NCBI GenBank assembly: GCA_963701295.1
Contig: OY969585.1
Span: forward strand, 1,088,001 to 1,152,000
Length of the DNA stretch: 64,000 bases
Source of the DNA: Ignavibacteriota bacterium
GTDB taxonomy: Bacteria > Bacteroidota > Ignavibacteria > UBA10030
Direction of reading: 5' to 3'
In this document: positions 14,047 to 64,000 of the stretch, one piece after another
Position numbering within the stretch: the stretch's first letter is position 1
Layout: every line of letters starts with the position of its first letter
Position numbers and translations under genes: made by a program
Notes under the pieces: model-generated
Seen by the model: only the letters and a program-made list of their open reading frames with translations
Database searches by the model: none
Told to the model about the DNA's origin: nothing

Positions 14047-15861
14047 ATGCTACGTTCAATCTTAATCCTTCTCTTCTTTGCATCAAGTGCAGAAGCGCAG
14101 GTCAATATCGATCCAATTCGTCCGCATATGCCGGATTCACTTTTCTTGCAAGTACAAATTCCAGATAAAGATACAATCCGGACATTTTCATCGCACTTAC
14201 GGATTGCTGCTTGTACTCGGCCGGAAGCAACGGCATTCATCAATGGCAAGCAAACGACAGTCTATCCAAGTGGCGCGTTTGTTGGACTTGTGAGCGTGAA
14301 TGTCGGTATTACCAATCTTCGATTTACGGTACTTTCAGCAAAAGGCGATTCGCTCTGGAAGGAGTTCGCCGTTCTTCGTCCAGAACCGATGAAGAATTCA
14401 TCGCATGATACACTCGTTATCGAAGATGCACTGATGGAACCATCGCAAGATATGTGGTTGACGTCAGGCGATGTGTTGGAAATGAGATTTAAGGGAAGTC
14501 CCGGATGGGAAGCTTCATGTGATATTCCGGGAATTAAATCAGATATTAATATGCGAGAGCAGTCTTCGAAGGAAGCAGATGGTTTTTCAGGAGTTTATAT
14601 TGCTTATTACACAGTCAAACCTGCCGATGAAGTACATGAAGTGCAAATTATCTTCAGATTGAAAAAAAGTTTTTGGAGTAAAGAAAAAGTTCTTTCCAAA
14701 GCAAAAATATCTTTTATTCCCGGTGAACTATTGCGTGTTGCAGAAATTGTTGGGAGTCGTCCGTATCTCAACGCCGGTCTCGGGAGTGATCGCCTCGGCG
14801 GGTCAAAACTTGGCTTTCTTCAAGCAGGTGTGCGATTGGGGATAACAGGAAAAATCGGTTCGCAGTATCGCGTACGATTATCAGAAATAATGAATGCATG
14901 GCTGCCGGAAGAATTTGCGAAACTCTTACCGCCTGATACACCACTGCCACGCTCGTTGGCGGGTGCTATTTCTGCAACAGGAAATGGCTCGGAAGATATT
15001 GTCACGCTTGTGCTCTCTGAAAAGCTGCCTTACACCAGCGAGCAGTTGATAGCCCCCAACGCAATCGCCGTTGATGTCTATGGAGCAACATCCAACACTA
15101 ACTGGATTTCACAAAATCTTTCTGCAAGCGGCATTGAAAATATCACATGGAAACAGATTGCAGCAGAACAGTACCGTATGACCATCACTCTTCAACATCC
15201 GCATTGGGGATACGATATCGACTATGCGGGAAATTTACTGCGTGTAAAAATACGGCGGCCGCCAGCAATACTCTCTCGCGATTCTGTATTAGCAGGACTC
15301 ACTATTGCTCTCGATGCAGGACATGGCGGCGATGTGAAAGGAGCGGTTGGCGCTACCGGTGTACTTGAGAAAGATGTAACTATTTCGATAGTGCGTCACC
15401 TTGAATCCATTCTCAAATCGAAAGGTGCCAAGATAATACTGACGCGAAGAGAGAACGAAGGGCCGTCCATGGCAGATCGGATCGATAAAATAGCGCGTTT
15501 AGGGGCTCAACTTCTCGTGAGCATTCACTGCAATTCTGCGGGCGAAGCTTCAGATCCGCTTACCATAGCTGGTGTCAGTACGTACTACCGGCCTATTGGT
15601 TTTAAACCGCTTGCGGACATTATATATACTAAGATGCTTGCTCTTGGACTTCAACAATTTGGTGTCGTAGGCAGCTTTAATTTTATGCTTAACTCACTCA
15701 CTCAAATGCCTAATGTCCTCGTGGAAACGGCTTTTCTCTCCAATCCCGAAGATGAAATGCTCTTATTAGATGATGGGTTCAGGAAGAAAGTGGCGGAACA
15801 AATTACAATAGGATTAGAGGAGTTTGTTAGAAATAATTTAGGAGTGAAAGAAATTAACTGA
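14047..15861 (+). CDS. N-acetylmuramoyl-L-alanine amidase (Amidase_3), secreted
   Basis: Signal peptide; LDAGHGG, LEKDV, SIHCN, VLVETAFLSN. Confidence 0.9.
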   Translation: MLRSILILLFFASSAEAQVNIDPIRPHMPDSLFLQVQIPDKDTIRTFSSHLRIAACTRPEATAFINGKQTTVYPSGAFVGLVSVNVGITNLRFTVLSAKGDSLWKEFAVLRPEPMKNSSHDTLVIEDALMEPSQDMWLTSGDVLEMRFKGSPGWEASCDIPGIKSDINMREQSSKEADGFSGVYIAYYTVKPADEVHEVQIIFRLKKSFWSKEKVLSKAKISFIPGELLRVAEIVGSRPYLNAGLGSDRLGGSKLGFLQAGVRLGITGKIGSQYRVRLSEIMNAWLPEEFAKLLPPDTPLPRSLAGAISATGNGSEDIVTLVLSEKLPYTSEQLIAPNAIAVDVYGATSNTNWISQNLSASGIENITWKQIAAEQYRMTITLQHPHWGYDIDYAGNLLRVKIRRPPAILSRDSVLAGLTIALDAGHGGDVKGAVGATGVLEKDVTISIVRHLESILKSKGAKIILTRRENEGPSMADRIDKIARLGAQLLVSIHCNSAGEASDPLTIAGVSTYYRPIGFKPLADIIYTKMLALGLQQFGVVGSFNFMLNSLTQMPNVLVETAFLSNPEDEMLLLDDGFRKKVAEQITIGLEEFVRNNLGVKEIN

Positions 15862-17500: not shown

Positions 17501-19027
17501 CTACCAGTTATATCGTATGGTATAGGTAATTGTTTCCTCTTCGTCCTTTTTCAGCTTCACAGGAAACTTGATTGTAGTCTGATTTACTTTTTCCCAAGAA
17601 GTGTTGCTTTTAGTTATATCCCATTCATTCCAGCGCCATGGGTGTTCATAGACAAGAACTTCAACTTGTTCTGATTTATGATTGCGGACTTTGACCTCAA
17701 ATGTCTCATCGACGACATGACCGGAAATAACGACGCGGAAATCTTTCTGCGCTCTTTCGCCGACAATGTCAAATGCGTTTCCGAGATAAAGTTTAATTTC
17801 TTCATCCTTTGGCGTATGATCGATTTCGTCCTCACCGATGAATTGTTCTTTACCATCATCATCTTGTTTATAGACGCGTACTTTGCCTTTCGGCAATGCA
17901 ATGCCGAGTCCAGCTTTTTCTTCGTTCTTAAAAGTCACAAATACACCGACCTTTTTGTTCGATTCCTGGCCGAAACTTCCCTGTGCACGATACGAGTAGC
18001 TATTGTACCAATACCGCCATTGATCAGAAAGCCCATCATAGATAAAAACTTTTTTTGAAAGAACATTCTTAGCAGATGTCAGTTCAATCTGTTTTGTTTC
18101 GTTATTCCCAAGATCTGTTTTTCGCTGGAGCGAATAGAGCTTGTACTCAAAAAGTTCTTTCTGTTGAAATTGCGGCGCGGCTGCCACTCCGTCCATCGCT
18201 ATCCTGGATTTCATCATGCCGCTATAGCTGGCTTGTTCTTCTTTTACAAGATTCACATCGCCTGCTACCAATTTCAATCCTGTGTTTTTAAACGTTGTGC
18301 CGGAATTGTTCGTAATCGTCACCCAGCCTGTCAGGTCGATCTCCGTATCTTTTGAATTGAGTAACGCAACATAATTGCAACCCCATGTCAATTGATTGGC
18401 AAGGTAACTGATTTCCGTTTTGTGCAGACCTGCCTTTGTTGTATTGACAAGCCATTCAAGTTGTGGTTTCAGGATCAATCCCTCCGGCAAATTTGGAAGA
18501 ATAAGTCGACCTGCGGGACCAATTTCGATCTTCCCGTTGATTTCTGCGATCATTTGTCCGGTCGAATAGTAAGGTTCACCGCCACTGTAAGGATTATACC
18601 CGGGTTGAGGCTGCCAACCGGTAGCAAGAAGCTTTCCTTTAACGGTGTAATCTTTCTTTGATTCGTTGTCCGTTCGGATAAATTCCACTTCTTTGCCGAT
18701 GTATTTTTCCATTAACTTAGCTTGGTGCACAAGGTCGTACTGGTAGTTTTGTTCTAACACTTTCACGGCTTCTGGATCGGTGAGACTTGAAAAGTGCAGT
18801 GACGTGCCGTCGATGGTGGCAGGAATATCGGGAATAATGACACGGTTCAATCCTTTCGCCAAGTCGATTGTGCGTTCCTCGCGAACCAGTGCAAGATTAA
18901 TATTATAGATCGTGAGGTCGACCGCTTGGCGATTGCTTGCTGGTGTGATAGGCTGTGCAGATGTTCTACACCAGCCGCCCATTAACACACAAACAACAGC
19001 GAACAACGAGCAAAAGAGATTTTTCAT
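17501..19027 (-). CDS. DUF4139 domain-containing secreted protein
   Basis: VDLTIYN.NLALVRE, EQNYQYDL, ISYL..LTW..NY, LPKGKVRVY, FIGEDEIDHTP. Confidence 0.85.
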   Translation of the reverse strand: MKNLFCSLFAVVCVLMGGWCRTSAQPITPASNRQAVDLTIYNINLALVREERTIDLAKGLNRVIIPDIPATIDGTSLHFSSLTDPEAVKVLEQNYQYDLVHQAKLMEKYIGKEVEFIRTDNESKKDYTVKGKLLATGWQPQPGYNPYSGGEPYYSTGQMIAEINGKIEIGPAGRLILPNLPEGLILKPQLEWLVNTTKAGLHKTEISYLANQLTWGCNYVALLNSKDTEIDLTGWVTITNNSGTTFKNTGLKLVAGDVNLVKEEQASYSGMMKSRIAMDGVAAAPQFQQKELFEYKLYSLQRKTDLGNNETKQIELTSAKNVLSKKVFIYDGLSDQWRYWYNSYSYRAQGSFGQESNKKVGVFVTFKNEEKAGLGIALPKGKVRVYKQDDDGKEQFIGEDEIDHTPKDEEIKLYLGNAFDIVGERAQKDFRVVISGHVVDETFEVKVRNHKSEQVEVLVYEHPWRWNEWDITKSNTSWEKVNQTTIKFPVKLKKDEEETITYTIRYNW

Positions 19028-19112
19028 AGCGAACTCCTTTTGTTCATGGTTAAAGAACACCATGAATTAATATGATGGAATTCAAAAAGGTAAATGAATC
19101 TTTCTATGTTTT

Positions 19113-55359: not shown

Positions 55360-56265
55360 ATGAAGATACTACGGCTCATCTTCTGGTCTTTTCTGTTTTC
55401 TGCCTTGGCACTTACTCTGAGCGATCAAGTTCTCTATAGATTTTGGCTTGTTCCTCAGCTTTCATCGCTCCAACAGGTTCCCTTTTATAGTTTTTTACTT
55501 GTTTTTTCCCCGATGGTGCTCGTCGTCATATTCTTTGGATGGATGCTCACATCGTGGAAACAGGTATGTCTTATCGCGTTCATTGTCGCATTGAGCCATC
55601 AGATCCATGATTCTCTCTGTATGTCTCTCGGGTCTCCGGGGTATTTCATGAGTTATGCGCCGGAAAATCCCTACACCTTTTGGCTTCTTCGTTCATTCTT
55701 GATGCTCTGCGTGTATGTGGCTGCGTTCAGTATCGTGTGGTACAGCAAAGTTGTTCTACAAAAAACATTTACCCGTCTTTCTTCTCGTCCTGTCTCACAT
55801 AGTAATCACGAGGAAATGGCGGCGCGTATAAACGATAATAAAAATGAGGATCGTATGCCTGCGAGAATTACATATCATGTTGTACCGGATCCGAGCGGCT
55901 GGCTTGTAAAAAAAGGAAGGGCAAAAAAAGCAAGCAGTGCTCATTCGACAAAAGAGGAAGCTCTGCGCGCTGCGAGCGATGTGGCAAAAAGTCATCCGCT
56001 GTCGCAGGTTGTCGTTCATAAGGCGTCCGGCGTTATTGAATCTGATCGAACCTTTGAATACAGGCACTACAAGAAGAAAAAAAAGAAAAAAGAAATCGGC
56101 AGAAAAATCAAAAAAGGATTGAAGCGAAATAAGCGGAAAGAAAGCGAACAACGCCTGCGGCGGCGAAAGGCGGCGCAGTTAGGAATTGCACGCTTGAAAA
56201 GAAAACGATATCTGCGGCGTCAAGCGGCAAAAAAGGGGGCACAGAAAAGAAAAAATAAGCGATAG
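55360..56265 (+). CDS. 4-TM domain fused in frame to a DUF2188-like domain and an extremely basic tail
   Basis: YHVVPDPSGWLVKK...TKEEA...VVHKASGVIE; internal SD and ATG at 55855. Confidence 0.65.
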   Translation: MKILRLIFWSFLFSALALTLSDQVLYRFWLVPQLSSLQQVPFYSFLLVFSPMVLVVIFFGWMLTSWKQVCLIAFIVALSHQIHDSLCMSLGSPGYFMSYAPENPYTFWLLRSFLMLCVYVAAFSIVWYSKVVLQKTFTRLSSRPVSHSNHEEMAARINDNKNEDRMPARITYHVVPDPSGWLVKKGRAKKASSAHSTKEEALRAASDVAKSHPLSQVVVHKASGVIESDRTFEYRHYKKKKKKKEIGRKIKKGLKRNKRKESEQRLRRRKAAQLGIARLKRKRYLRRQAAKKGAQKRKNKR

Positions 56266-56275
56266 GGATTTCCTT

Positions 56276-57031
56276 ATGTATTCCAATAAATTCTATATGC
56301 CGCACCGTGTGGTTTTGATTTTTGTATGCTGTATCGTATCGTCATGTCTTTTTCAGAGAACGGGGAAAGATCAGGCAAATTCTTCACCGCTGTTGTCTGC
56401 AGGACAATCGGAAGAAGATCATGCCCGGCTTGACACTGTTTTTAAGGCGGCGTACCGCGCATTTGAACAAAAAGAATATATTCGTGCCATTGAATTATTT
56501 AAACGGCACAATGAACTCAATACCGCACTCATGAATTATGAAAGCTATGCATTTATGGCTGAATGCTATCATCGGATGGATCAAAAGGAACAAGGGGAGC
56601 GTATCTACACGGAAGCCCTCCTGAAGAACTCGCAGCGGCCGAAAGATATGAACACAATATATTTTTCAACATTGAGGTCGGAAGAGCTTGACTCATGGAA
56701 ATCGAAGTATCCTTCTTTTCCTGCAGTTCTCAAGAAGGAAAACGGTTTTCTTCCGTATGACGAGTGGCCGGTTGCTGTCTATAAGAAGGCGCCTGTGTAT
56801 CCGGATTCGGCATTACGCAGCGGCATGGAAGGAGATGTTTTTGTCAAAGCGTTAATCGATGAATACGGCAATGTGGTCAGCGTTTCATTTCTGAAATCGA
56901 CTGAAAAAATCTTCGAAGTTCCCGCCCTCAATGCAGTGGAACAATGGAAATTTTCTCCGTTTAAGAAAAAAGGCATGCCAATAAAAATGGAGATTACCGT
57001 ACCGGTGAAATTTAGAATATCACGATCGTAG
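56276..57031 (+). CDS. TPR + TonB C-terminal domain protein (possible lipoprotein)
   Basis: PVYPDSALRSGMEGDVFVKALIDEYG..WKFSP..VPVKF. Confidence 0.8.
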   Translation: MYSNKFYMPHRVVLIFVCCIVSSCLFQRTGKDQANSSPLLSAGQSEEDHARLDTVFKAAYRAFEQKEYIRAIELFKRHNELNTALMNYESYAFMAECYHRMDQKEQGERIYTEALLKNSQRPKDMNTIYFSTLRSEELDSWKSKYPSFPAVLKKENGFLPYDEWPVAVYKKAPVYPDSALRSGMEGDVFVKALIDEYGNVVSVSFLKSTEKIFEVPALNAVEQWKFSPFKKKGMPIKMEITVPVKFRISRS

Positions 57032-57178
57032 CAATCTGCGCTTCAATACTTAAGCATACGATTGTACAGGGTATTGACTCATCTCGTTTTTCTTGTTTAC
57101 TGGGGTTACGTAAAGATGAAAAGAACAACTGTCAGTCCCTCGCGTTTTTTAGGAAGAATCTTACAAAAGAAAGTCGCT

Positions 57179-57206
57179 TGAAAAATATTTTTCATGCCTA
57201 TTGACA
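57179..57206 (+). promoter_or_regulatory. 16-bp palindrome next to TTGACA at the start of the island
   Basis: TGAAAAATATTTTTCA (57179-57194); TTGACA 57201-57206. Confidence 0.4.
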
Positions 57207-57458
57207 AATAAATAAAAAAGTACCATGTTGTTCCAGCAATGGTTATACTATGACGAGATAGTACTATTTGCTGACGCCAAATATTTCATTTTATTTCAAT
57301 TCAATTTACTCTATTTATTATTGGAAGAGAATAGAAAATCCTGAGAGATTTAGATGGGTAAAGTGGTATAACAAATACAGCGCCTTATAACTTCTTGGAT
57401 TTCATATTTGTGATTTTTTGTTCCCTTTGTATAAAAGCAGACCATAAGTATTGTTTTT

Positions 57459-58028
57459 ATGAAAGAATCGTTTCCCAAAGCAATATTCTCGCGAAAACGG
57501 ATCGCTTTAATAATAGTATTTTTAATTATTACAATATTCGTTATAGGCTATTTATACCTTCAAAGCCAATTCGATTTTCCTCCTCCTATCATAGGAGAAA
57601 AAATGTCGCCAGCGATAGTACAAACACTTGATGGTAAAAATGTATCTATTTATTCATTCCTTGTAAAAAAAAGTATCGTAATGTTCTTTTGGACAGATTG
57701 TTCTCATTGTAAGAATGAAATAACCGATATACTTTCGTTGTATCCTGTTTTGAAAGATTCAATGAATATCGTTGGTATTTCATTTAGTGGTAAAGAACAA
57801 ACTGTTGACTTCATTATAACATCGGGAATTAAATTTCCCGTATTCCGTGATGTGAACTGGGAAGCCAAAAATAGTTTTCATGCAAATGTAACTCCATCGA
57901 TATTTTTTGTAGATTCAAGACAGCGATTAGTAAAGTATAAATTTGGAGAGCAAAGTAAAAAGCAATTGGGTGCAATGTTGCTTTGGTTTGCTAATATAAC
58001 TCCGGATTCAACACTTAAACAATTATGA
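57459..58028 (+). CDS. Membrane-anchored TlpA/ResA-like thioredoxin
   Basis: N-terminal TM; FFWTDCSHC; cis-Pro VTPS. Confidence 0.85.
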   Translation: MKESFPKAIFSRKRIALIIVFLIITIFVIGYLYLQSQFDFPPPIIGEKMSPAIVQTLDGKNVSIYSFLVKKSIVMFFWTDCSHCKNEITDILSLYPVLKDSMNIVGISFSGKEQTVDFIITSGIKFPVFRDVNWEAKNSFHANVTPSIFFVDSRQRLVKYKFGEQSKKQLGAMLLWFANITPDSTLKQL

Positions 58029-58561
58029 AGCAGAAAAAAATAATTGCCGCAATAGTTTTAATCGCAAGTGTTGCCGGGCTCAGTGCAATCTGCTGGTTTT
58101 TACAAAAGCCGCATGCAGATAGAATACTCTCAGCTTGGATGATAAATGCGGAATACATTGGCGACGACGGTATTGTCATGCAAACAAAGCACAATAGCTG
58201 CGGGCCCAGCGCTCTGAAAATGATATTTGATCACTACAATATTTCTTCCTCGCTGAAAGAGATTGAGCAGAGTGTCAATCTTACCCAAAAAGGTTCGTCA
58301 ATGCTTGCATTGAAGGAAATGGCAGAACTGAGAGGATTAAAAGCAGAAGGATGGCGCTTCACGTTGGAAGATTTTCTGCGTTCCTCATTTCCATCGATTC
58401 TCTATGTGAATAAGGATCACTACATCGTTGCGGATAGCGTATCTGTGGATGGTAATGTATATGTTTGCGATCCTGCTATTGGCAAACTTCGGATATCTAA
58501 GGAAAAGCTCAATAAAATTTGGGGGGGGGCGAAACGTTGGTGTTTGAGAAAAAGTAAATAG
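58025..58561 (+). CDS. Stand-alone C39 cysteine peptidase with an N-terminal signal/anchor
   Basis: QTKHNSCGPSAL (Gln/Cys), DHYIV (His), CDPAIG (Asp); no ABC domain. Confidence 0.88.
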   Translation: MKQKKIIAAIVLIASVAGLSAICWFLQKPHADRILSAWMINAEYIGDDGIVMQTKHNSCGPSALKMIFDHYNISSSLKEIEQSVNLTQKGSSMLALKEMAELRGLKAEGWRFTLEDFLRSSFPSILYVNKDHYIVADSVSVDGNVYVCDPAIGKLRISKEKLNKIWGGAKRWCLRKSK

Positions 58562-58627
58562 TGAATAGTAAATAGTAAATAGAAATAGGAGATCTAAAAT
58601 CGTAAATTGGCAATCGTAAGTCGGAAA
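58552..58627 (+). repeat. Degenerate 7-mer tandem array
   Basis: aagtaaa tagtgaa tagtaaa tagtaaa ... tcgtaaa ttggcaa tcgtaag tcggaaa. Confidence 0.65.
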
Positions 58628-58642
58628 TTAAGTATAACTCCT

Positions 58643-58742
58643 TGCTCACTGGTTTGTTCATTGCGAATGAAGAAGAAGCACTTGGTTGGCCCCCTTAGAG
58701 CTGAATTGGAATTCGCTGTGAAGAAACGGGCCACAGTGAGCA
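58643..58742 (+). ncRNA. Predicted structured leader RNA (three-way junction) upstream of the peptide gene
   Basis: Stems TGCTCACTG/CAGTGAGCA, TTCATT/AATGAA and TGGCCC/GGGCCA, the last enclosing GAATT/AATTC. Confidence 0.5.
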
Positions 58743-58788
58743 GAAAATAATAAACTAACAATAAACAAATAACATAAAGGAGGTACAT

Positions 58789-58935
58789 ATGAGTGCAGGA
58801 TGTTGGTGGGCTGTAGCAGGAATGGGTGTTGCTATGATGGGTGCCTGTGCTATTACAGGTGGCTTGTCAGCAATCGTTTGGGGCGCTAGTTTGTTGACCT
58901 CAACAGGAGGTCTTATTTCTGGTTGCGGTGGTTAA
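58789..58935 (+). CDS. 48-aa hydrophobic Cys/Gly-rich putative precursor peptide (not in ORF track)
   Basis: SD AAGGAGGT 58777-58784; MSAGCWWAVAGMGVAMMGACAITGGLSAIVWGASLLTSTGGLISGCGG*. Confidence 0.85.
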   Translation: MSAGCWWAVAGMGVAMMGACAITGGLSAIVWGASLLTSTGGLISGCGG

Positions 58936-58946
58936 TCTCAATAGTT

Positions 58947-58977
58947 CTGTTGGGCGGGATGAATTCCCGCTCAACAG
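58947..58977 (+). terminator. Strong hairpin after the peptide gene (partial terminator or mRNA stabiliser)
   Basis: CTGTTGGGCGGGA / TCCCGCTCAACAG; no long U tract. Confidence 0.7.
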
Positions 58978-59005
58978 TTCAAACATCATTTCTAGAGGAA
59001 ATGAA

Positions 59006-59758
59006 ATGTATAATTTTAAAATATTGAAAATTATTTATGAGTTAAACACAACTCTTTCGAAGCGTGTAAAAAAGTTTGAGTGGTTTTATATCACTTTAAT
59101 TGGTTTTGCCTGCCTCTTCCTTGGAGTGATAATTGGAGTTCCGTTATTTACAAAATTGGTGAAATTTCGGGACGAAATGGACTTCAAAAATGCATTAAAT
59201 TTTATCCCAATTTTAGTTCTCCTAATTGATCTCATCCCAACGATATTGCGCTATCAGTATAAAACACTTATCGAGAAACGTCATTTAAGTATTTTCCCTA
59301 TAAAAAGATTGCACACACTTTGGTTTCATTATTTTCTCTGGCTCTCTGATATTAAAAATGCTACTTATATCGTTTGTTTATTATCATTTCAAATATATTT
59401 CCTTGCTCTGTCTATGTTTATTGGTGCTCTTTTGAGTTCATTGTTATGGTTGTTTTTCTTTCTAACAGTAATAACTGGATATCTCATTTTATTTGAATTG
59501 TATAGTGACGTCTTAATGAAATATCGACAACACGCAATAAGCTTTTTTTTTCTTCTGTTAATCTTGGTGAATGCTATAAGAATTATCGGTCGTGAAGACT
59601 TTTATTCCTCTATTCCAATCACTAGCTTTGTGGGAAACGGGCTCTATGCGCTTTCTGTCGGAAACTTTTCTGTTGCTTCATGGAATCTCTTGCTACTATT
59701 ATCCTCGTTTTCTATAGGCGTGTCACTTCTTATCTTCTTAAACCCTAAGAGACGATGA
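59006..59758 (+). CDS. Multi-TM protein, putative ABC permease or immunity subunit
   Basis: About 6 TMs; coupled in an operon to the ABC ATPase. Confidence 0.65.
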   Translation: MYNFKILKIIYELNTTLSKRVKKFEWFYITLIGFACLFLGVIIGVPLFTKLVKFRDEMDFKNALNFIPILVLLIDLIPTILRYQYKTLIEKRHLSIFPIKRLHTLWFHYFLWLSDIKNATYIVCLLSFQIYFLALSMFIGALLSSLLWLFFFLTVITGYLILFELYSDVLMKYRQHAISFFFLLLILVNAIRIIGREDFYSSIPITSFVGNGLYALSVGNFSVASWNLLLLLSSFSIGVSLLIFLNPKRR

Positions 59759-60426
59759 CTTATTATCGGTTTATTCTTTTGTTAATAACTCAATTCAAAT
59801 TATTGAATCGCTATTTAAGGATTCCGGTGCTATTTATTCTACTTTTTCTTTATACATTTGCTTTTGCTTTTCTAAAACATGCTTTTGGTAAACCTATTCA
59901 TCTTCCATTCGTAACGATGATTATTAATATTTTATTCATCGGTTTTCTTTTCAGTGAATATTTCATAGCAGGTGTTAATGAAAAGATATTCTACGCAATC
60001 TTTTCATCAAAAATAAGAAATATAGTATTAACGAATAATGTCGCTTTAATGATTATTATTTGGATTTTGCCAATACCAATATTTATCATCGAACTTATTT
60101 ATTTCTCATCAACATGGCATGAAATATATGATGCCTTGCAGTATGTAGTTATAACAACGCCTGGTTATGTTTATCTATTAGACATATTTTCTACATCTAT
60201 AAAAAAACCAACACGATATATTTCTACGTTTGTACAAATGTTTCTTCAAGTAATCAATATTCTTCTTGCATCTACTCCGTACGCAATATTGCACTTATGG
60301 AGCACATCTAATATCCTTTATATAATTGTCTGTCTGTTCATATTTTGTTTTTGGTACTTTTATGGAGTTACAAGTATTGTCAACTATTTTCGTCAGAGTA
60401 TAATCGGAGCTATTCAAAACCAATGA
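59755..60426 (+). CDS. Multi-TM protein, putative ABC permease subunit
   Basis: About 6 TMs; ATGA overlaps at both ends. Confidence 0.65.
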   Translation: MTYYRFILLLITQFKLLNRYLRIPVLFILLFLYTFAFAFLKHAFGKPIHLPFVTMIINILFIGFLFSEYFIAGVNEKIFYAIFSSKIRNIVLTNNVALMIIIWILPIPIFIIELIYFSSTWHEIYDALQYVVITTPGYVYLLDIFSTSIKKPTRYISTFVQMFLQVINILLASTPYAILHLWSTSNILYIIVCLFIFCFWYFYGVTSIVNYFRQSIIGAIQNQ

Positions 60427-61208
60427 ATGCGATTGAAATACAAGACCTACAAAAAACCTATAAGAATAAGGTAATTGCATTAAATTCATTGAATCTTAAT
60501 GTTCCAAAATCTTGTATTTTAGGATTGCTTGGTCTAAACGGTGCTGGAAAATCTACAACCATCAACATACTCGCAGGTATTTTACAGAAAACTGATGGAC
60601 GTATTCTCATTTATGACAAAGAGATTAATGATGATGAGTATGAATACAAGAGTTACACTGGATTTGTGCTCGAGCGACCACACTATTTTGAAAAGCTCTC
60701 CGTAGAAGAGTACTTAGAATTTGTCGGTGCGATGTATGGTCTTGATGTTCACGAAATAAAAAAGCGGACAAATGAGTTACTTGAGTTACTTGAACTTCAA
60801 AGTAATAGGAGGCAATGGATTGAAACTTATTCAGCCGGAATGAAGAAAAAAGTTTCGCTTGCCGCTGCGATCATCCACAATCCCCAATTGTTAATTCTTG
60901 ACGAGCCGCTGGAGGGAATAGATCCAATCTCAGTAAAGCGAATTAAAGATATTCTGAAACTAATGGTACAAAACGGTGCAGCGATATTAATAACTTCTCA
61001 TGTTCTTGATACAATAGAAAAAATTTGCGATGAAATTGCAATAATAAATAAAGGAGAAATCATCTTTCGATCAAAAACTGAAGAGATTCGAGCTAGAATT
61101 AAAAACGAATTTACTCATGAAACCTATCAATCATTGGAAGAAATATTCATCGATGTCGTTAATAATAAGAATGGAGAAAAGCCGAAAGGAAGATTATCAT
61201 GGCTATAG
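60423..61208 (+). CDS. ABC transporter ATP-binding protein (exporter type)
   Basis: GLNGAGKST, YSAGMKK, ILDEP, TSH. Confidence 0.95.
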   Translation: MNAIEIQDLQKTYKNKVIALNSLNLNVPKSCILGLLGLNGAGKSTTINILAGILQKTDGRILIYDKEINDDEYEYKSYTGFVLERPHYFEKLSVEEYLEFVGAMYGLDVHEIKKRTNELLELLELQSNRRQWIETYSAGMKKKVSLAAAIIHNPQLLILDEPLEGIDPISVKRIKDILKLMVQNGAAILITSHVLDTIEKICDEIAIINKGEIIFRSKTEEIRARIKNEFTHETYQSLEEIFIDVVNNKNGEKPKGRLSWL

Positions 61209-61909
61209 CACTATCCAATATTGTAAATATATTTGCAATCCCGAATGATGTTTTTCAAAACATTAAAACAAGCCCGAAATGGCTTATAGCATTTTTATTT
61301 ATGTTTATTGTAAGCGCAACCTGTGGATATTTTATGGAACCATTCACACAAAAAGTTATGGAACACACTCTTTCCGCTAAAATGAGCGATGAGCAAGTTC
61401 GGCAAACTTTGGATGTGGCTTCAAGATTTCATTTTCTTTTGCTTTTGTTCTCTGCTGTTCCATTATTTGCAAAATGGCTGTTTATTTCGTTATTCCTATA
61501 TTTGGGTGCAATTCTATTGAATGCAGAAAAAACGAATTTTAGAAATATTTATTCAGCCGTAGTTCATTCAGAACTTATTTTATTGCTCATGCTTATGTTG
61601 AATGTCCTTATTTTGCATGTTAAAGGAGTAGAGTCAGTAAATAATATAACAGATCTTAACGCAATTATTGGATTAGAATACTTTCTTGGAGATAAAATAC
61701 ACAATATACCTTTGTACACTTTCCTTAATAACTTCAATGTCTTTTCGATTTGGTATCTTGTCATCCTCATAATCGGCATATCGGTTATTTGCCAAATAGA
61801 AAAATGGAAATCTGCAATATTAGTCTCATCAGTGTTGTTGCTGGGTGTAGGTGTCCAAGTTGCTTTTGTTTCCTTGTCCGAAAATATGCAGCATATGATG
61901 GGGAGTTGA
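61199..61909 (+). CDS. Yip1 domain membrane protein
   Basis: IFAIPNDVFQNIKTSPKW...NVFSIWYLVILIIG; 5 TMs. Confidence 0.8.
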   Translation: MAIALSNIVNIFAIPNDVFQNIKTSPKWLIAFLFMFIVSATCGYFMEPFTQKVMEHTLSAKMSDEQVRQTLDVASRFHFLLLLFSAVPLFAKWLFISLFLYLGAILLNAEKTNFRNIYSAVVHSELILLLMLMLNVLILHVKGVESVNNITDLNAIIGLEYFLGDKIHNIPLYTFLNNFNVFSIWYLVILIIGISVICQIEKWKSAILVSSVLLLGVGVQVAFVSLSENMQHMMGS

Positions 61910-62161
61910 ACGTGGGTAATTGAAATTTTCTTCCGAGTTTGTGAACTACCTGTTTATGTTTATTGACACAATACAACGAGCTATTCATAAAGCCAATCCA
62001 AAATATTATTATCTACAATTTTAACAAATTCAGATGAATTAAGTATAACACTACGATATTCCGTTAATTTCCTAGTTCTAAGCAATTGGGCTTTAGCGTT
62101 AATTATAATCTTTAATTTGGGTTTGGGAATATATATAGCGTGTTGTGATAGTGAATACACT

Positions 62162-64000
62162 ATGAAAAATAAAATAGCATCCTTCTTCGATTATTCATTT
62201 ATAGGGATCACTTACGCCTTAATATTTGCGACAATTTATGGATTGTTCAACCTCAGCATTTTATTTTTTATTGTGTTCGTGATCTATTTGGTTAAAAATA
62301 TTTTCCTCGATGATTTTAACTCTGATATATTCCGTTATACGTGGTTTGATTTAGCGATTCTATTGGTTGCTGTTGCAGAGGGAGTAAGCTATATCGCCTC
62401 AACTTATCATGAGAACAGCTTTTACAGTGTTGCCGATATTTCTTTTTTTATTCTTTTCTATTATTGGGTAAGATTTAATCTAAAGTACGATTATCAGCGA
62501 AGAGCAATATTTTTATTTATAACGGTTCTAGGAGTATATTTATTTTTAGACGGCATGTTGACATTTCTTTCGGGTTACTCTCAAATGAAGTCGGCTGGTT
62601 TAAACGACTTTAATGAGTTCAGGCACCTCCTTTCTTTTGGCTCACCAGTTGGCACACCAACTGCAGAATGGAGTACAATTTATCTCGCATGCCTGCCGTT
62701 TTCATTAATACTATTTTTTACAAAATTCAAAAAGGATAAACGGGAATCATTGCTTTTATTGATTCCGGCAATCTTTATTTTAACAATCCCTGTGATTTCG
62801 TGTTTCAGGGGAATGTATTTTGCTATTGCATCTTTTGCACTCTTTGGAAGCGCTTTATTCCTATTGTATAAACTATCTTCCTTTAGGAAAGTTCTTCTGT
62901 TTAATTCGTTATTTTTCTTTTCGATAGGATTGGTTGTTGTCATATCACCTTTCTTCAAACCTGTATTGACAACTATTTCTATGTTTCAAACTATGTCACA
63001 AGTCCGTAGTTTTGAAGGCAGGAAAAGTCTTTGGAAAACAGGTATCGAGATGATAAAGGATCATCCACTCACAGGAATTGGCTCTAACAATTTTCCAATA
63101 AAGTATTTCTCGTATAAAGATCAAAAAGATAACACACCTTATGCAGGCAGAGTTTTTAACACATTTTTGCAGATTACGATCGAAAAAGGATTGATCGGTT
63201 TGTTTGCGTTTGACATTTTAATAATTGCATTCTTCTTTGTTTCTCACCGAAAGATTAAATTATTAACCGATAATTGGGACCAAAAGGCTACTGTCGTTTT
63301 ATTTATGAGCGCGTTTACAGCAATCATTATAAGAGATTTAAGTTATTCTTCTATATTTTATAATAGAGGGGCAGATCTGCTCATTTGGTTTATGTTTGCT
63401 GACAATGCTCAAGTGCCCAATAATAAAATTTCTTCAGATTCTAGTTGTCGCAAAAAAGCAATCTTACTCTTTCCAGTTCTTATTGGCTCAATTATATTCT
63501 TGCCAATTGCGTTGAATTCTATTCAAAAAGGGAAAGCAGAAAGTCAACTTCTTTCATTTATCGAACAATTAAATCATAAAAAATCTGTTGATGCTCAACA
63601 GAACATCGAATCTGCAATTCAGTTATGTCCAGAGAATGCCTATTATAGAGCCTGCCGAGGATTGTTATCGGATAGAATGATAAATAACAAGTTCAATGTC
63701 GAAGAGTATCTTGAAAATAAATCGTTGTTGACCAAGGCAGACAAAGAGCAGATTAAGATAGGGATTACGTCTTATAATAAAGCGTTAGAGTTAAATCCGA
63801 CTGATGATGAATTCTATCATAATCTTGGATGGTTATATATTATCAATCAAGATGAGAAGCAGGCTGAATATTGTTTACATCAATCAATTCAAATAGACAA
63901 TAATGCGGCAATTCCTCATATCAGTTTAGGGATCTTAAAAGAAAGAAATGGCGAGAAGGACAGTGCTCTAACAGAATATAGTACTGCTATTTGTAGGCTT
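62162..64000 (+). CDS. O-antigen-ligase (Wzy_C)-like membrane protein with C-terminal TPRs, 3' end outside window
   Basis: Manual translation: MKNKIASFF...GRKSLWKTGIEMIKDHPLTGIGSNNF...FNTFLQITIEKGLIG...YNKALELNPTDDEFYHNLGWLY. Confidence 0.85.
   Translation, partial: MKNKIASFFDYSFIGITYALIFATIYGLFNLSILFFIVFVIYLVKNIFLDDFNSDIFRYTWFDLAILLVAVAEGVSYIASTYHENSFYSVADISFFILFYYWVRFNLKYDYQRRAIFLFITVLGVYLFLDGMLTFLSGYSQMKSAGLNDFNEFRHLLSFGSPVGTPTAEWSTIYLACLPFSLILFFTKFKKDKRESLLLLIPAIFILTIPVISCFRGMYFAIASFALFGSALFLLYKLSSFRKVLLFNSLFFFSIGLVVVISPFFKPVLTTISMFQTMSQVRSFEGRKSLWKTGIEMIKDHPLTGIGSNNFPIKYFSYKDQKDNTPYAGRVFNTFLQITIEKGLIGLFAFDILIIAFFFVSHRKIKLLTDNWDQKATVVLFMSAFTAIIIRDLSYSSIFYNRGADLLIWFMFADNAQVPNNKISSDSSCRKKAILLFPVLIGSIIFLPIALNSIQKGKAESQLLSFIEQLNHKKSVDAQQNIESAIQLCPENAYYRACRGLLSDRMINNKFNVEEYLENKSLLTKADKEQIKIGITSYNKALELNPTDDEFYHNLGWLYIINQDEKQAEYCLHQSIQIDNNAAIPHISLGILKERNGEKDSALTEYSTAICRL

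Follow-up and report, generated by a model that had tools for sequence, protein, structure and literature searches.

What does a short, cysteine-containing peptide gene make when it stands between a stand-alone C39 peptidase and a row of membrane proteins, with an anchored thioredoxin at the head? The question is raised by the end of a 64,000-nucleotide window of DNA from an Ignavibacteriota bacterium (assembly GCA_963701295.1, contig OY969585.1). The source genome, here called G000, is a single 3.64-Mb contig (C1), 99.3% complete, and the window is C1:1088001-1152000. The original prediction had described a candidate peptide system at 57459-64000 of the window, with an anchored thioredoxin, a C39 peptidase, a structured leader, a 48-aa peptide, a hairpin, two multi-pass membrane proteins, an ATP-binding cassette (ABC) ATPase, a Yip1 protein and an O-antigen-ligase/TPR protein. 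Open reading frames (ORFs) and domain matches show that these parts are present and all co-oriented on the + strand. From comparison with related loci, we suggest, with moderate confidence, that the locus is a member of a cassette family whose products are likely small antibacterial peptides with disulfide bonds, exported by Sec and trimmed in the periplasm, and that the G000 copy, having lost both signal and leader, is probably non-producing. What can be read directly from the sequence is the gene order, the anatomy of the precursors, the base-pairing pattern of an RNA and 2 lesions in the window's copy. On that footing, family-level two-step export and periplasmic maturation appear well supported, and we infer an antibacterial function for the peptides.

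Precursors and partner genes of the cassette family

Relatives of the C39 peptidase occur in 49 of the 277 genomes of the order, G000 included, where they are confined to 2 families, and in 9 of 401 genomes sampled from the phylum. Their spread is patchy and in low-GC DNA (2 of the 15 other genomes of the genus), and none was found on viral contigs. After removal of loci duplicating the same places, 53 C39 copies were examined, the window's own among them; L-numbers below denote examined loci. A precursor gene follows in 50 of the 52 non-self copies (47 by script; L056, L062 and L074 by eye), and peptides thus recur at the same position, a recurrence that the original prediction had named as support for a family. 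No precursor was found after 2 low-scoring copies, L073 and L075, the latter on a contig that ends 96 nt later. Each precursor, 68-138 aa long, has a basic N-terminus and a hydrophobic stretch resembling a Sec-type signal, then a leader ending in a Gly-Gly-type pair, and then a hydrophobic core containing Cys. In 46 precursors (L077, mis-cut by the script, is omitted), the leader carries L/M/I at -12 in 46, E at -8 in 29, M/L at -7 in 46, I/V at -4 in 28, G at -2 in 44 and G at -1 in 38. It matches the Gly-Gly leader of peptidase-containing ABC transporters (PCATs), for which hydrophobic -12, -7 and -4 positions are marked in a RiPP (ribosomally made peptide with post-translational modifications) protease review (PMC10885120).

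Behind this conserved leader the cores are very diverse, with two-Cys Gly/Ala-rich, C-x10-C-x9-C-x10-C, C-x6-C-xn-C-x6-C and Cys-Cys-x-x-x-Trp types, and the Cys number is even in 45 of 47. A profile of 45 precursors retrieves 100 representatives at 50% identity (E <= 0.001). Assignment to the BLB8/JUQZ-1 family was rejected, as the match is confined to the signal/leader region and lies far below cut-off. Four loci (L004:10840-11187, L005:4520-4870, L053 and L125) have two-Cys cores followed, after a Gly/Ser linker, by a conserved charged C-terminal extension of about 20 residues, possibly a follower peptide. Two to four RNA/precursor cassettes are present in each of several genomes (L007, L009, L182); some of these stand in tandem and differ in their cores, and insertion sequences have broken others (L006, L182).

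The partner genes are less uniform. Thioredoxin homologues lie upstream of the C39 gene in relatives, a Yip1-containing sequence cluster (which also took in a few other proteins) is present in 42 of 52 loci, and MauE/DoxX in 19. An exported protein of about 175 aa, to which no family was assigned, occurs in 21 and 16 loci (2 clusters). It has no Foldseek match at E <= 0.001; its best structural matches, DUF4309/YjgB (Z 8.5, rmsd 4.0 over 123 aligned residues) and RhsI1, an immunity protein (Z 7.4, rmsd 4.3 over 118 aligned residues), are middling and were not used as evidence. A module of two permeases and an ATPase accompanies the Gly/Ala-rich cores, and the 175-aa protein is then absent. Metal transporters, MNIO enzymes and conserved regulators are absent from the genes recurring directly after the precursor, in clusters judged mostly by sequence and position. 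In a minority of relatives there is a protein of about 240 aa, to which no family was assigned, or DUF5686, neither matching HmcD of the haemocin locus (see below). The locus L135 has a thioredoxin, the RNA and a full precursor with no C39 between. The metagenome search with membrane protein 1 gave no match. The glycosylation and transpeptidation allowed for in the original prediction fare poorly: the Wzy_C-TPR gene is in 2 of the 53 copies, the window's and that of L054 from the same genus, and hence glycosylation is not a family feature, while a full-length orthologue is present in 1 of 276 other genomes of the order; nothing supports transpeptidation or cyclisation. In L054, the window's gene order is found with a complete precursor.

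Where would the leader be cut? A hydrophobic segment precedes the catalytic domain in 44 of the 48 C39 proteins with a readable N-terminus. Because of this anchor topology, the signal-like precursors and the ResA-like thioredoxin, we infer that cleavage is periplasmic. The best solved-structure match of a close intact relative is the double-glycine protease LahT (6MPZ, E 4e-11), and PCAT domains give the C39 a better score (E 5e-19) than FapD or FilB do (E 1e-8), which hints at a separate origin from a PCAT domain. The proposal that the peptide is exported, forms disulfides and is cut after Gly-Gly outside the cytoplasm is supported for the relatives but not for the window's copy, which has neither signal nor Gly-Gly leader.

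A pseudoknotted RNA before the peptide gene

In the stretch from the C39 stop to the precursor gene, the family has an element of about 105 nt, predicted to fold into a long hairpin in which the terminal loop reaches back to pair with a bulge of 6 nt close to the base. In an alignment of 44 sequences (including L006, which lacks the element, and with counts uncorrected for relatedness), 82.9% of the cells pair, against 69.0% in shuffles (0 of 500 as high) and 38-48% in slid controls, and two-sided changes are seen in 37 of 45 pairs. The loop-bulge helix has at least 5 Watson-Crick pairs in 40 of 43 sequences, where reassigned bulges give a mean of 13 and a maximum of 23; its fixed-column figure is lower, 71.8%, because the loops are out of register in the alignment. 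An independent DNA-pattern search of metagenomes, with the loop left unspecified, returned 60 hits, of which 59 could be parsed and some repeat organisms already seen. The loop-bulge pairing is present in 57 of the 59 (shuffled mean 31, maximum 44), and 58 precede a signal-like ORF; a Gly-Gly-like site, by a loose pattern, is found in all 51 complete ORFs (46 distinct). L102 and the unparsed L127 look like chance hits. G-U pairs outnumber A-C pairs 97 to 4, which points to an RNA on the sense strand. Rfam gave no match, either for window positions 57000-64000 at E <= 5 or for 20 related loci at E <= 1, apart from weak, chance-level hits to snoRNA, miRNA and sRNA models.

A covariance model finds one copy in G000; within the order 25 of 151 genomes have the element, and within the class 4 of 151. 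Two copies from another order again lie between C39 and precursor. Among 7 copies in regions chosen for having no C39 hit, 3 precede peptides with a signal and six Cys but no Gly-Gly leader, 1 precedes a Gly-Gly precursor and 3 have broken or no ORFs. Since copies without C39 still precede peptides, the RNA follows the peptide gene and not the protease. The six-Cys peptides (L183:5465-5665, L184:1127-1330 and L186, the last in G033:C5 near 67145) have the spacing C-x6-C-x3-C ... C-x3-C-x6-C and form a sister system, with neighbours that include a beta-propeller-like gene, a MauE- or thioredoxin-like gene, an ABC gene, a permease and a Yip1-like gene; in L183, a C39-like ORF lies about 5 kb downstream.

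The topology resembles that of the c-di-GMP-II riboswitch, which we take to be a long kinked hairpin whose loop pairs back near its base, but there is no Rfam match. The element ends 34-62 nt before the ATG, and a strong 3′ hairpin (z < -2, mononucleotide shuffles) follows 36 of 47 precursors. Stem-loops are known to set operon stoichiometry in SRPS (selective RNA processing and stabilization) operons (PMC4423207). The element differs from c-di-GMP-II and SRPS in that a U-rich terminator tract is mostly absent (3 of 43) and no covarying anti-Shine-Dalgarno is seen; a switch of the latter kind found no support, anti-Shine-Dalgarno pairing being no better than shuffled (244 of 300). Since U-tract and covarying anti-Shine-Dalgarno are mostly or wholly missing and the 3′ hairpin is common, we favor, by analogy with SRPS operons, a role in mRNA processing or stabilization, although the RNA may act as a riboswitch or ribozyme. 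Blocking of a 5′-exonuclease was rejected as a role: G000 has no RNase J match, and RNase E/G is present. The structure of this RNA is the best-supported undescribed element of the system.

Two lesions in the window's copy

Full precursors related to the window's peptide, found by a search among longer proteins, form two 90-aa clusters comprising six sequences that carry signal, leader and core. Against the core of the reference, the 90-aa full-length precursor P0107, the window's peptide is identical at 35 of 47 positions. It starts at precursor Met44, and the first 43 residues, signal and leader, are missing. Since the window's 5′ untranslated region and ribosome-binding site match those of the full precursors and the peptide begins at Met44, 43 codons are missing between 2 ATGs. 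The remaining peptide has no charged residue, an odd number of Cys (3) and no Pfam or NCBIfam match. Its model, a predicted helical hairpin (pLDDT 69), found nothing in Foldseek and elsewhere just generic helical hairpins at Z <= 6.6. Atlas searches yielded clusters without a name or leads scoring under 0.8. No other precursor with signal and leader was found in G000 (best E 0.2-0.48).

The second lesion is in the peptidase, the sole PF03412 match in G000. Its catalytic residues (Gln53, Cys59, His132, Asp149) are intact, its open frame is 180 aa and it is not fused to an ABC transporter. A C-terminal motif, W-x-G-[ED]-x-L, ends 51 of 54 C39 sequences; in the window it sits in another frame past a run of 9 G (G9), and the out-of-frame segment aligns with the last conserved stretch of LahT. 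G9 is the only G run of at least 9 on the + strand of G000; the longest G/C homopolymer of the genome is a C14 run at C1:2338072. Programmed phase variation at G9 is unsupported, as none of the four closest C39 relatives inspected (proteins only) needs a long G run. Downstream, the genes taken to give protection (ABC, Yip1 and the permease frames) are full length. The window's copy, having lost signal and leader, is thus probably, to judge from its sequence, a recent non-producing form that keeps its protection genes. Neither lesion figures in the original prediction. The coordinates are collected in Table 1.

Table 1. Features of the locus, in window positions
Feature	Position	Strand	Basis
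Membrane-anchored TlpA/ResA-like thioredoxin, predicted periplasm-facing	57459..58028	+	C81-x-x-C84; AhpC-TSA E 3e-13; ResA-like match below cut-off
Stand-alone C39 peptidase, N-terminal anchor	58025..58561	+	PF03412 E 4e-27, positions 4-123 of 133
G9 run, site of C39 frameshift	58521..58529	+	conserved tail in another frame
Pseudoknotted RNA (structured leader)	58640..58744	+	covariation; terminal loop 58687-58692 pairs with 6-nt bulge 58728-58733
Strong ribosome-binding site	58777..58784	+	sequence; position conserved in relatives
48-aa uncharged Gly/Ala-rich peptide, 3 Cys	58789..58935	+	ORF behind strong ribosome-binding site
13-bp hairpin directly after peptide gene	58947..58977	+	z -6.9
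Multi-pass membrane protein, inferred ABC-2-type permease 1	59006..59758	+	no Pfam/NCBIfam match; homologues in L005, L053
Multi-pass membrane protein, inferred ABC-2-type permease 2	59755..60426	+	no Pfam/NCBIfam match; position same in relatives
ABC ATPase	60423..61208	+	PF00005 E 2e-27; 64% identical to L005 copy
Yip1/YknW-like membrane protein	61199..61909	+	PF04893 E 1e-14; NF052650 69.7 bits vs cut-off 110
Wzy_C (O-antigen-ligase-like)-TPR protein, accessory	62162..64000, continues beyond window	+	Wzy_C and TPR domain matches; full frame 844 codons

Permease 2 has no sequence match, at the cut-offs used, to the proteins at the same position in relatives. The description of the locus as an AT-rich island was borne out (GC 0.333 against 0.424 for the genome, as low in 0.2% of 3,635 equal-sized windows), as was its extension past the window end: the low-GC stretch continues for about 2.8 kb and ends after a 691-aa protein. 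The latter (G000 1152683-1154758; L001:9683-11758) is exported, has weak alpha/beta-hydrolase (S9/esterase-like) matches and is absent from the other loci examined. A promoter scan did not exceed shuffled sequence (6 vs 7.9). Short 7-nt A/T-rich tandem repeats follow the C39 gene at 58549-58620, with similar arrays at 845.6, 2933.2 and 2936.6 kb of G000. Immediately downstream of the island, short genes unrelated to one another are separated by repeated intergenic sequences (L001:13300-13480, 14210-14370, 17550-17790 and 18830-19100), which suggest a cassette-like array. At 55360-56265 of the window, a membrane protein is joined to DUF2188 and to a tail that is very rich in Lys/Arg.

Precedents, rival explanations and significance

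The original prediction had held that the combination fits no known class, which is too strong. The haemocin locus hmcDCBAI of Avibacterium paragallinarum plasmid p250 (NC_005245; annotation and ORFs), for which no paper was found in the literature searched, has a stand-alone C39 peptidase, about 25% identical to ours, and a barrel-like HmcD. Its annotated structural protein (L194:3626-3928) has a signal-like N-terminus, then a double-glycine leader and a Cys core. The signal-like N-terminus, the Leu/Glu/Met...Gly-Gly leader, the Cys core and the stand-alone C39 are shared; HmcD, a small immunity gene and a cationic core set haemocin apart, while the thioredoxin, Yip1, the ABC-2 module or 175-aa protein, the hydrophobic non-cationic cores and the RNA are the family's own. 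Likewise, the nap island of Neisseria is horizontally acquired, and its Gly-Gly peptides are proposed to be cut in the periplasm by the stand-alone C39 NapP; unlike the peptides here, the Naps are cationic and cause autolysis, the island has a FapF-like NapF, and a holin is proposed for inner-membrane crossing (PMC11798529). FapD is an active periplasmic C39 whose target is unclear in the account of PMC5557850. In Pseudomonas Fap and Acinetobacter Fil (FilB by NCBIfam model only), a catalytic C39 outside the cytoplasm serves Sec-exported substrates, as proposed here, but these are fibre subunits with a dedicated outer-membrane channel, whereas here a canonical Gly-Gly leader adjoins the C39.

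More usually, C39 is described as a PCAT domain (PMC10885120), and a Bacteroidales RiPP survey likewise treats it in PCATs (PMC10352776). With class II double-glycine bacteriocins and glycocins that use PCATs, the family shares the leader consensus, a LahT-like protease, a thiol-disulfide partner and predicted helical-hairpin cores, and precursors give weak sub-threshold matches to class II bacteriocin models. Four relatives show C-x6-C-xn-C-x6-C, the Cys spacing of glycocins, whose helix-loop-helix cores hold two nested disulfides; the window's core has 3 Cys. The differences are that there is no fused PCAT, that a Pfam scan of all cluster ORFs found no GT2 S/O-glycosyltransferase, and that the signal peptide separates export from cleavage. 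As for the DUF95/SpoIIM protein of circular bacteriocins, neither membrane protein has a Pfam or NCBIfam match, though they may be remotely related to it. Leaderless bacteriocins are cationic and Lys-rich; the window's allele alone shares with them the lack of a leader, but its peptide is without charge. In Bacillus, YknW belongs to an SDP-toxin efflux system (PMC4887032). SDP with YknWXYZ offers the same pairing of a hydrophobic secreted peptide with a YknW/Yip1-type protection gene, but in a Gram-positive host and without C39 or Gly-Gly leader. Since the haemocin locus has the same export logic and periplasmic C39s are published for the nap island and Fap, the export principle is already known, and the family is a variant, not a new class. 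Two features are new. One is a lineage-wide family in Ignavibacteria-like bacteria whose disulfide cores are diverse, whose C39 is anchored and in which an outer-membrane barrel is mostly not linked. The other is the ~105-nt pseudoknotted RNA ahead of the peptide gene, which covaries strongly and is not matched in Rfam. No description of the peptide family or the RNA was found in the literature searched, mostly open-access and without supplements.

In intact relatives, the 5′ pseudoknot and 3′ hairpin would bracket the peptide mRNA, give it stability and raise precursor above enzyme levels. Sec would export the precursor, signal peptidase I would take off the signal, and the anchored, outward-facing C39 would cleave after the Gly-Gly-type motif. 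The anchored thioredoxin, often with MauE/DoxX, would set the disulfides, and Yip1 with either the ABC-2 module or the ~175-aa exported protein may serve self-protection or release. The 3 RNA-led peptides that have a signal but, without a C39 directly upstream, no Gly-Gly leader speak for this reading, as does the start of the G000 gene at an internal Met44, which an ATG-to-ATG loss of 43 codons predicts. Several points weigh against it. Typical bacteriocins are cationic, and 45 of the 47 cores have a net charge <= 0, neutral or anionic; none of 22 precursors tested reaches a curated Pfam/NCBIfam (bacteriocin) cut-off; and the leader logo is partly circular, as -12, -7 and the Gly-Gly-like pair were required by the script, leaving -8 and -4 free. 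A crude positive-inside count favors N-in/C-out in just 33 of the 44 C39s. No outer-membrane channel was found in the window's cluster, where a Pfam scan gave no linked FapF, NapF or HmcD barrel, and the one PF13557 gene in G000 lies 2.1 Mb away. Apart from its tail, the window's C39 differs from the consensus by 3 conservative changes, so that its decay is recent at most, or an assembly error. Finally, the Nap peptides, with similar logic, showed no antimicrobial activity in the published account (PMC11798529).

Could the window's allele instead be a functional leaderless peptide, exported by the ABC-2 module, with the C39 unneeded and decaying? The loss is clean and in frame, the RNA, ribosome-binding site and hairpin are kept, the 12 differences from P0107 are nearly all among small or hydrophobic residues, and the ABC, Yip1 and permease frames are full length. 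However, no second leaderless copy was seen in 50 genome-derived precursors, 58 metagenome hits and 2 further loci, the same ABC module stands beside full precursors, and the peptide has no charge and an odd Cys count; we consider this unlikely. Just as doubtful is a more ambitious reading, in which the family would be an undescribed class of periplasmically matured, disulfide-stapled peptide antibiotics, its gene controlled by a pseudoknotted RNA of a new class that senses a ligand or cleaves itself as a ribozyme, and the window a switch to a leaderless, ABC-exported form. It strikes us as improbable that an assembly error accounts for either lesion or for both, and that the cassette is intact in the organism itself. 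Homopolymer runs are error-prone, and the one sequencing run examined covers neither lesion, but the genome is a nearly complete single contig, and a clean 129-nt in-frame loss is atypical of sequencing error. The exact frameshifted C39 protein is also listed under a Logan source, which lends weak support to the sequence, as it may come from the same sample.

The remaining alternatives concern the family's product. Peptides with a structural or envelope role, subunits of fibres or of a membrane coat like those of Fap or Fil, would suit the hydrophobic, non-cationic cores and the high output suggested by a strong ribosome-binding site and RNA brackets, and periplasmic C39s do serve Fap amyloid secretion (PMC5557850). 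The missing FapF-type channel, the high diversity of cores behind a conserved leader and the closer resemblance of the C39 to PCAT domains than to FapD/FilB nevertheless make toxins the better guess, and subunits quite unlikely. The slimmest prospect is that the peptides remain in the periplasm or inner membrane, where they would buffer metal or redox state, or that their target is the producer itself, through signalling or autolysis, as with the Naps (PMC11798529). Cys-rich cores, including vicinal Cys-Cys types, the 19 loci with MauE/DoxX and the lack of a linked outer-membrane exit fit such a role; against it, metal transporters, MNIO enzymes and conserved regulators are missing from the genes that recur directly after the precursor, and even Cys numbers suit disulfides better than metal sites.

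For the family favored here, of exported and periplasmically trimmed disulfide peptides, the window's own copy is a poor expression target, and intact relatives are better suited. As a structured motif the RNA is well supported, has no Rfam match and is cheap to study in vitro. The family adds about 100 candidate disulfide peptides that family libraries miss, and its C39, predicted to face the periplasm and paired with an unambiguous Gly-Gly leader, is a clean system for learning what such proteases cut, a question that was open for FapD (PMC5557850). Together, the anchored C39 and thioredoxin could offer a simple periplasmic route to disulfide peptides.

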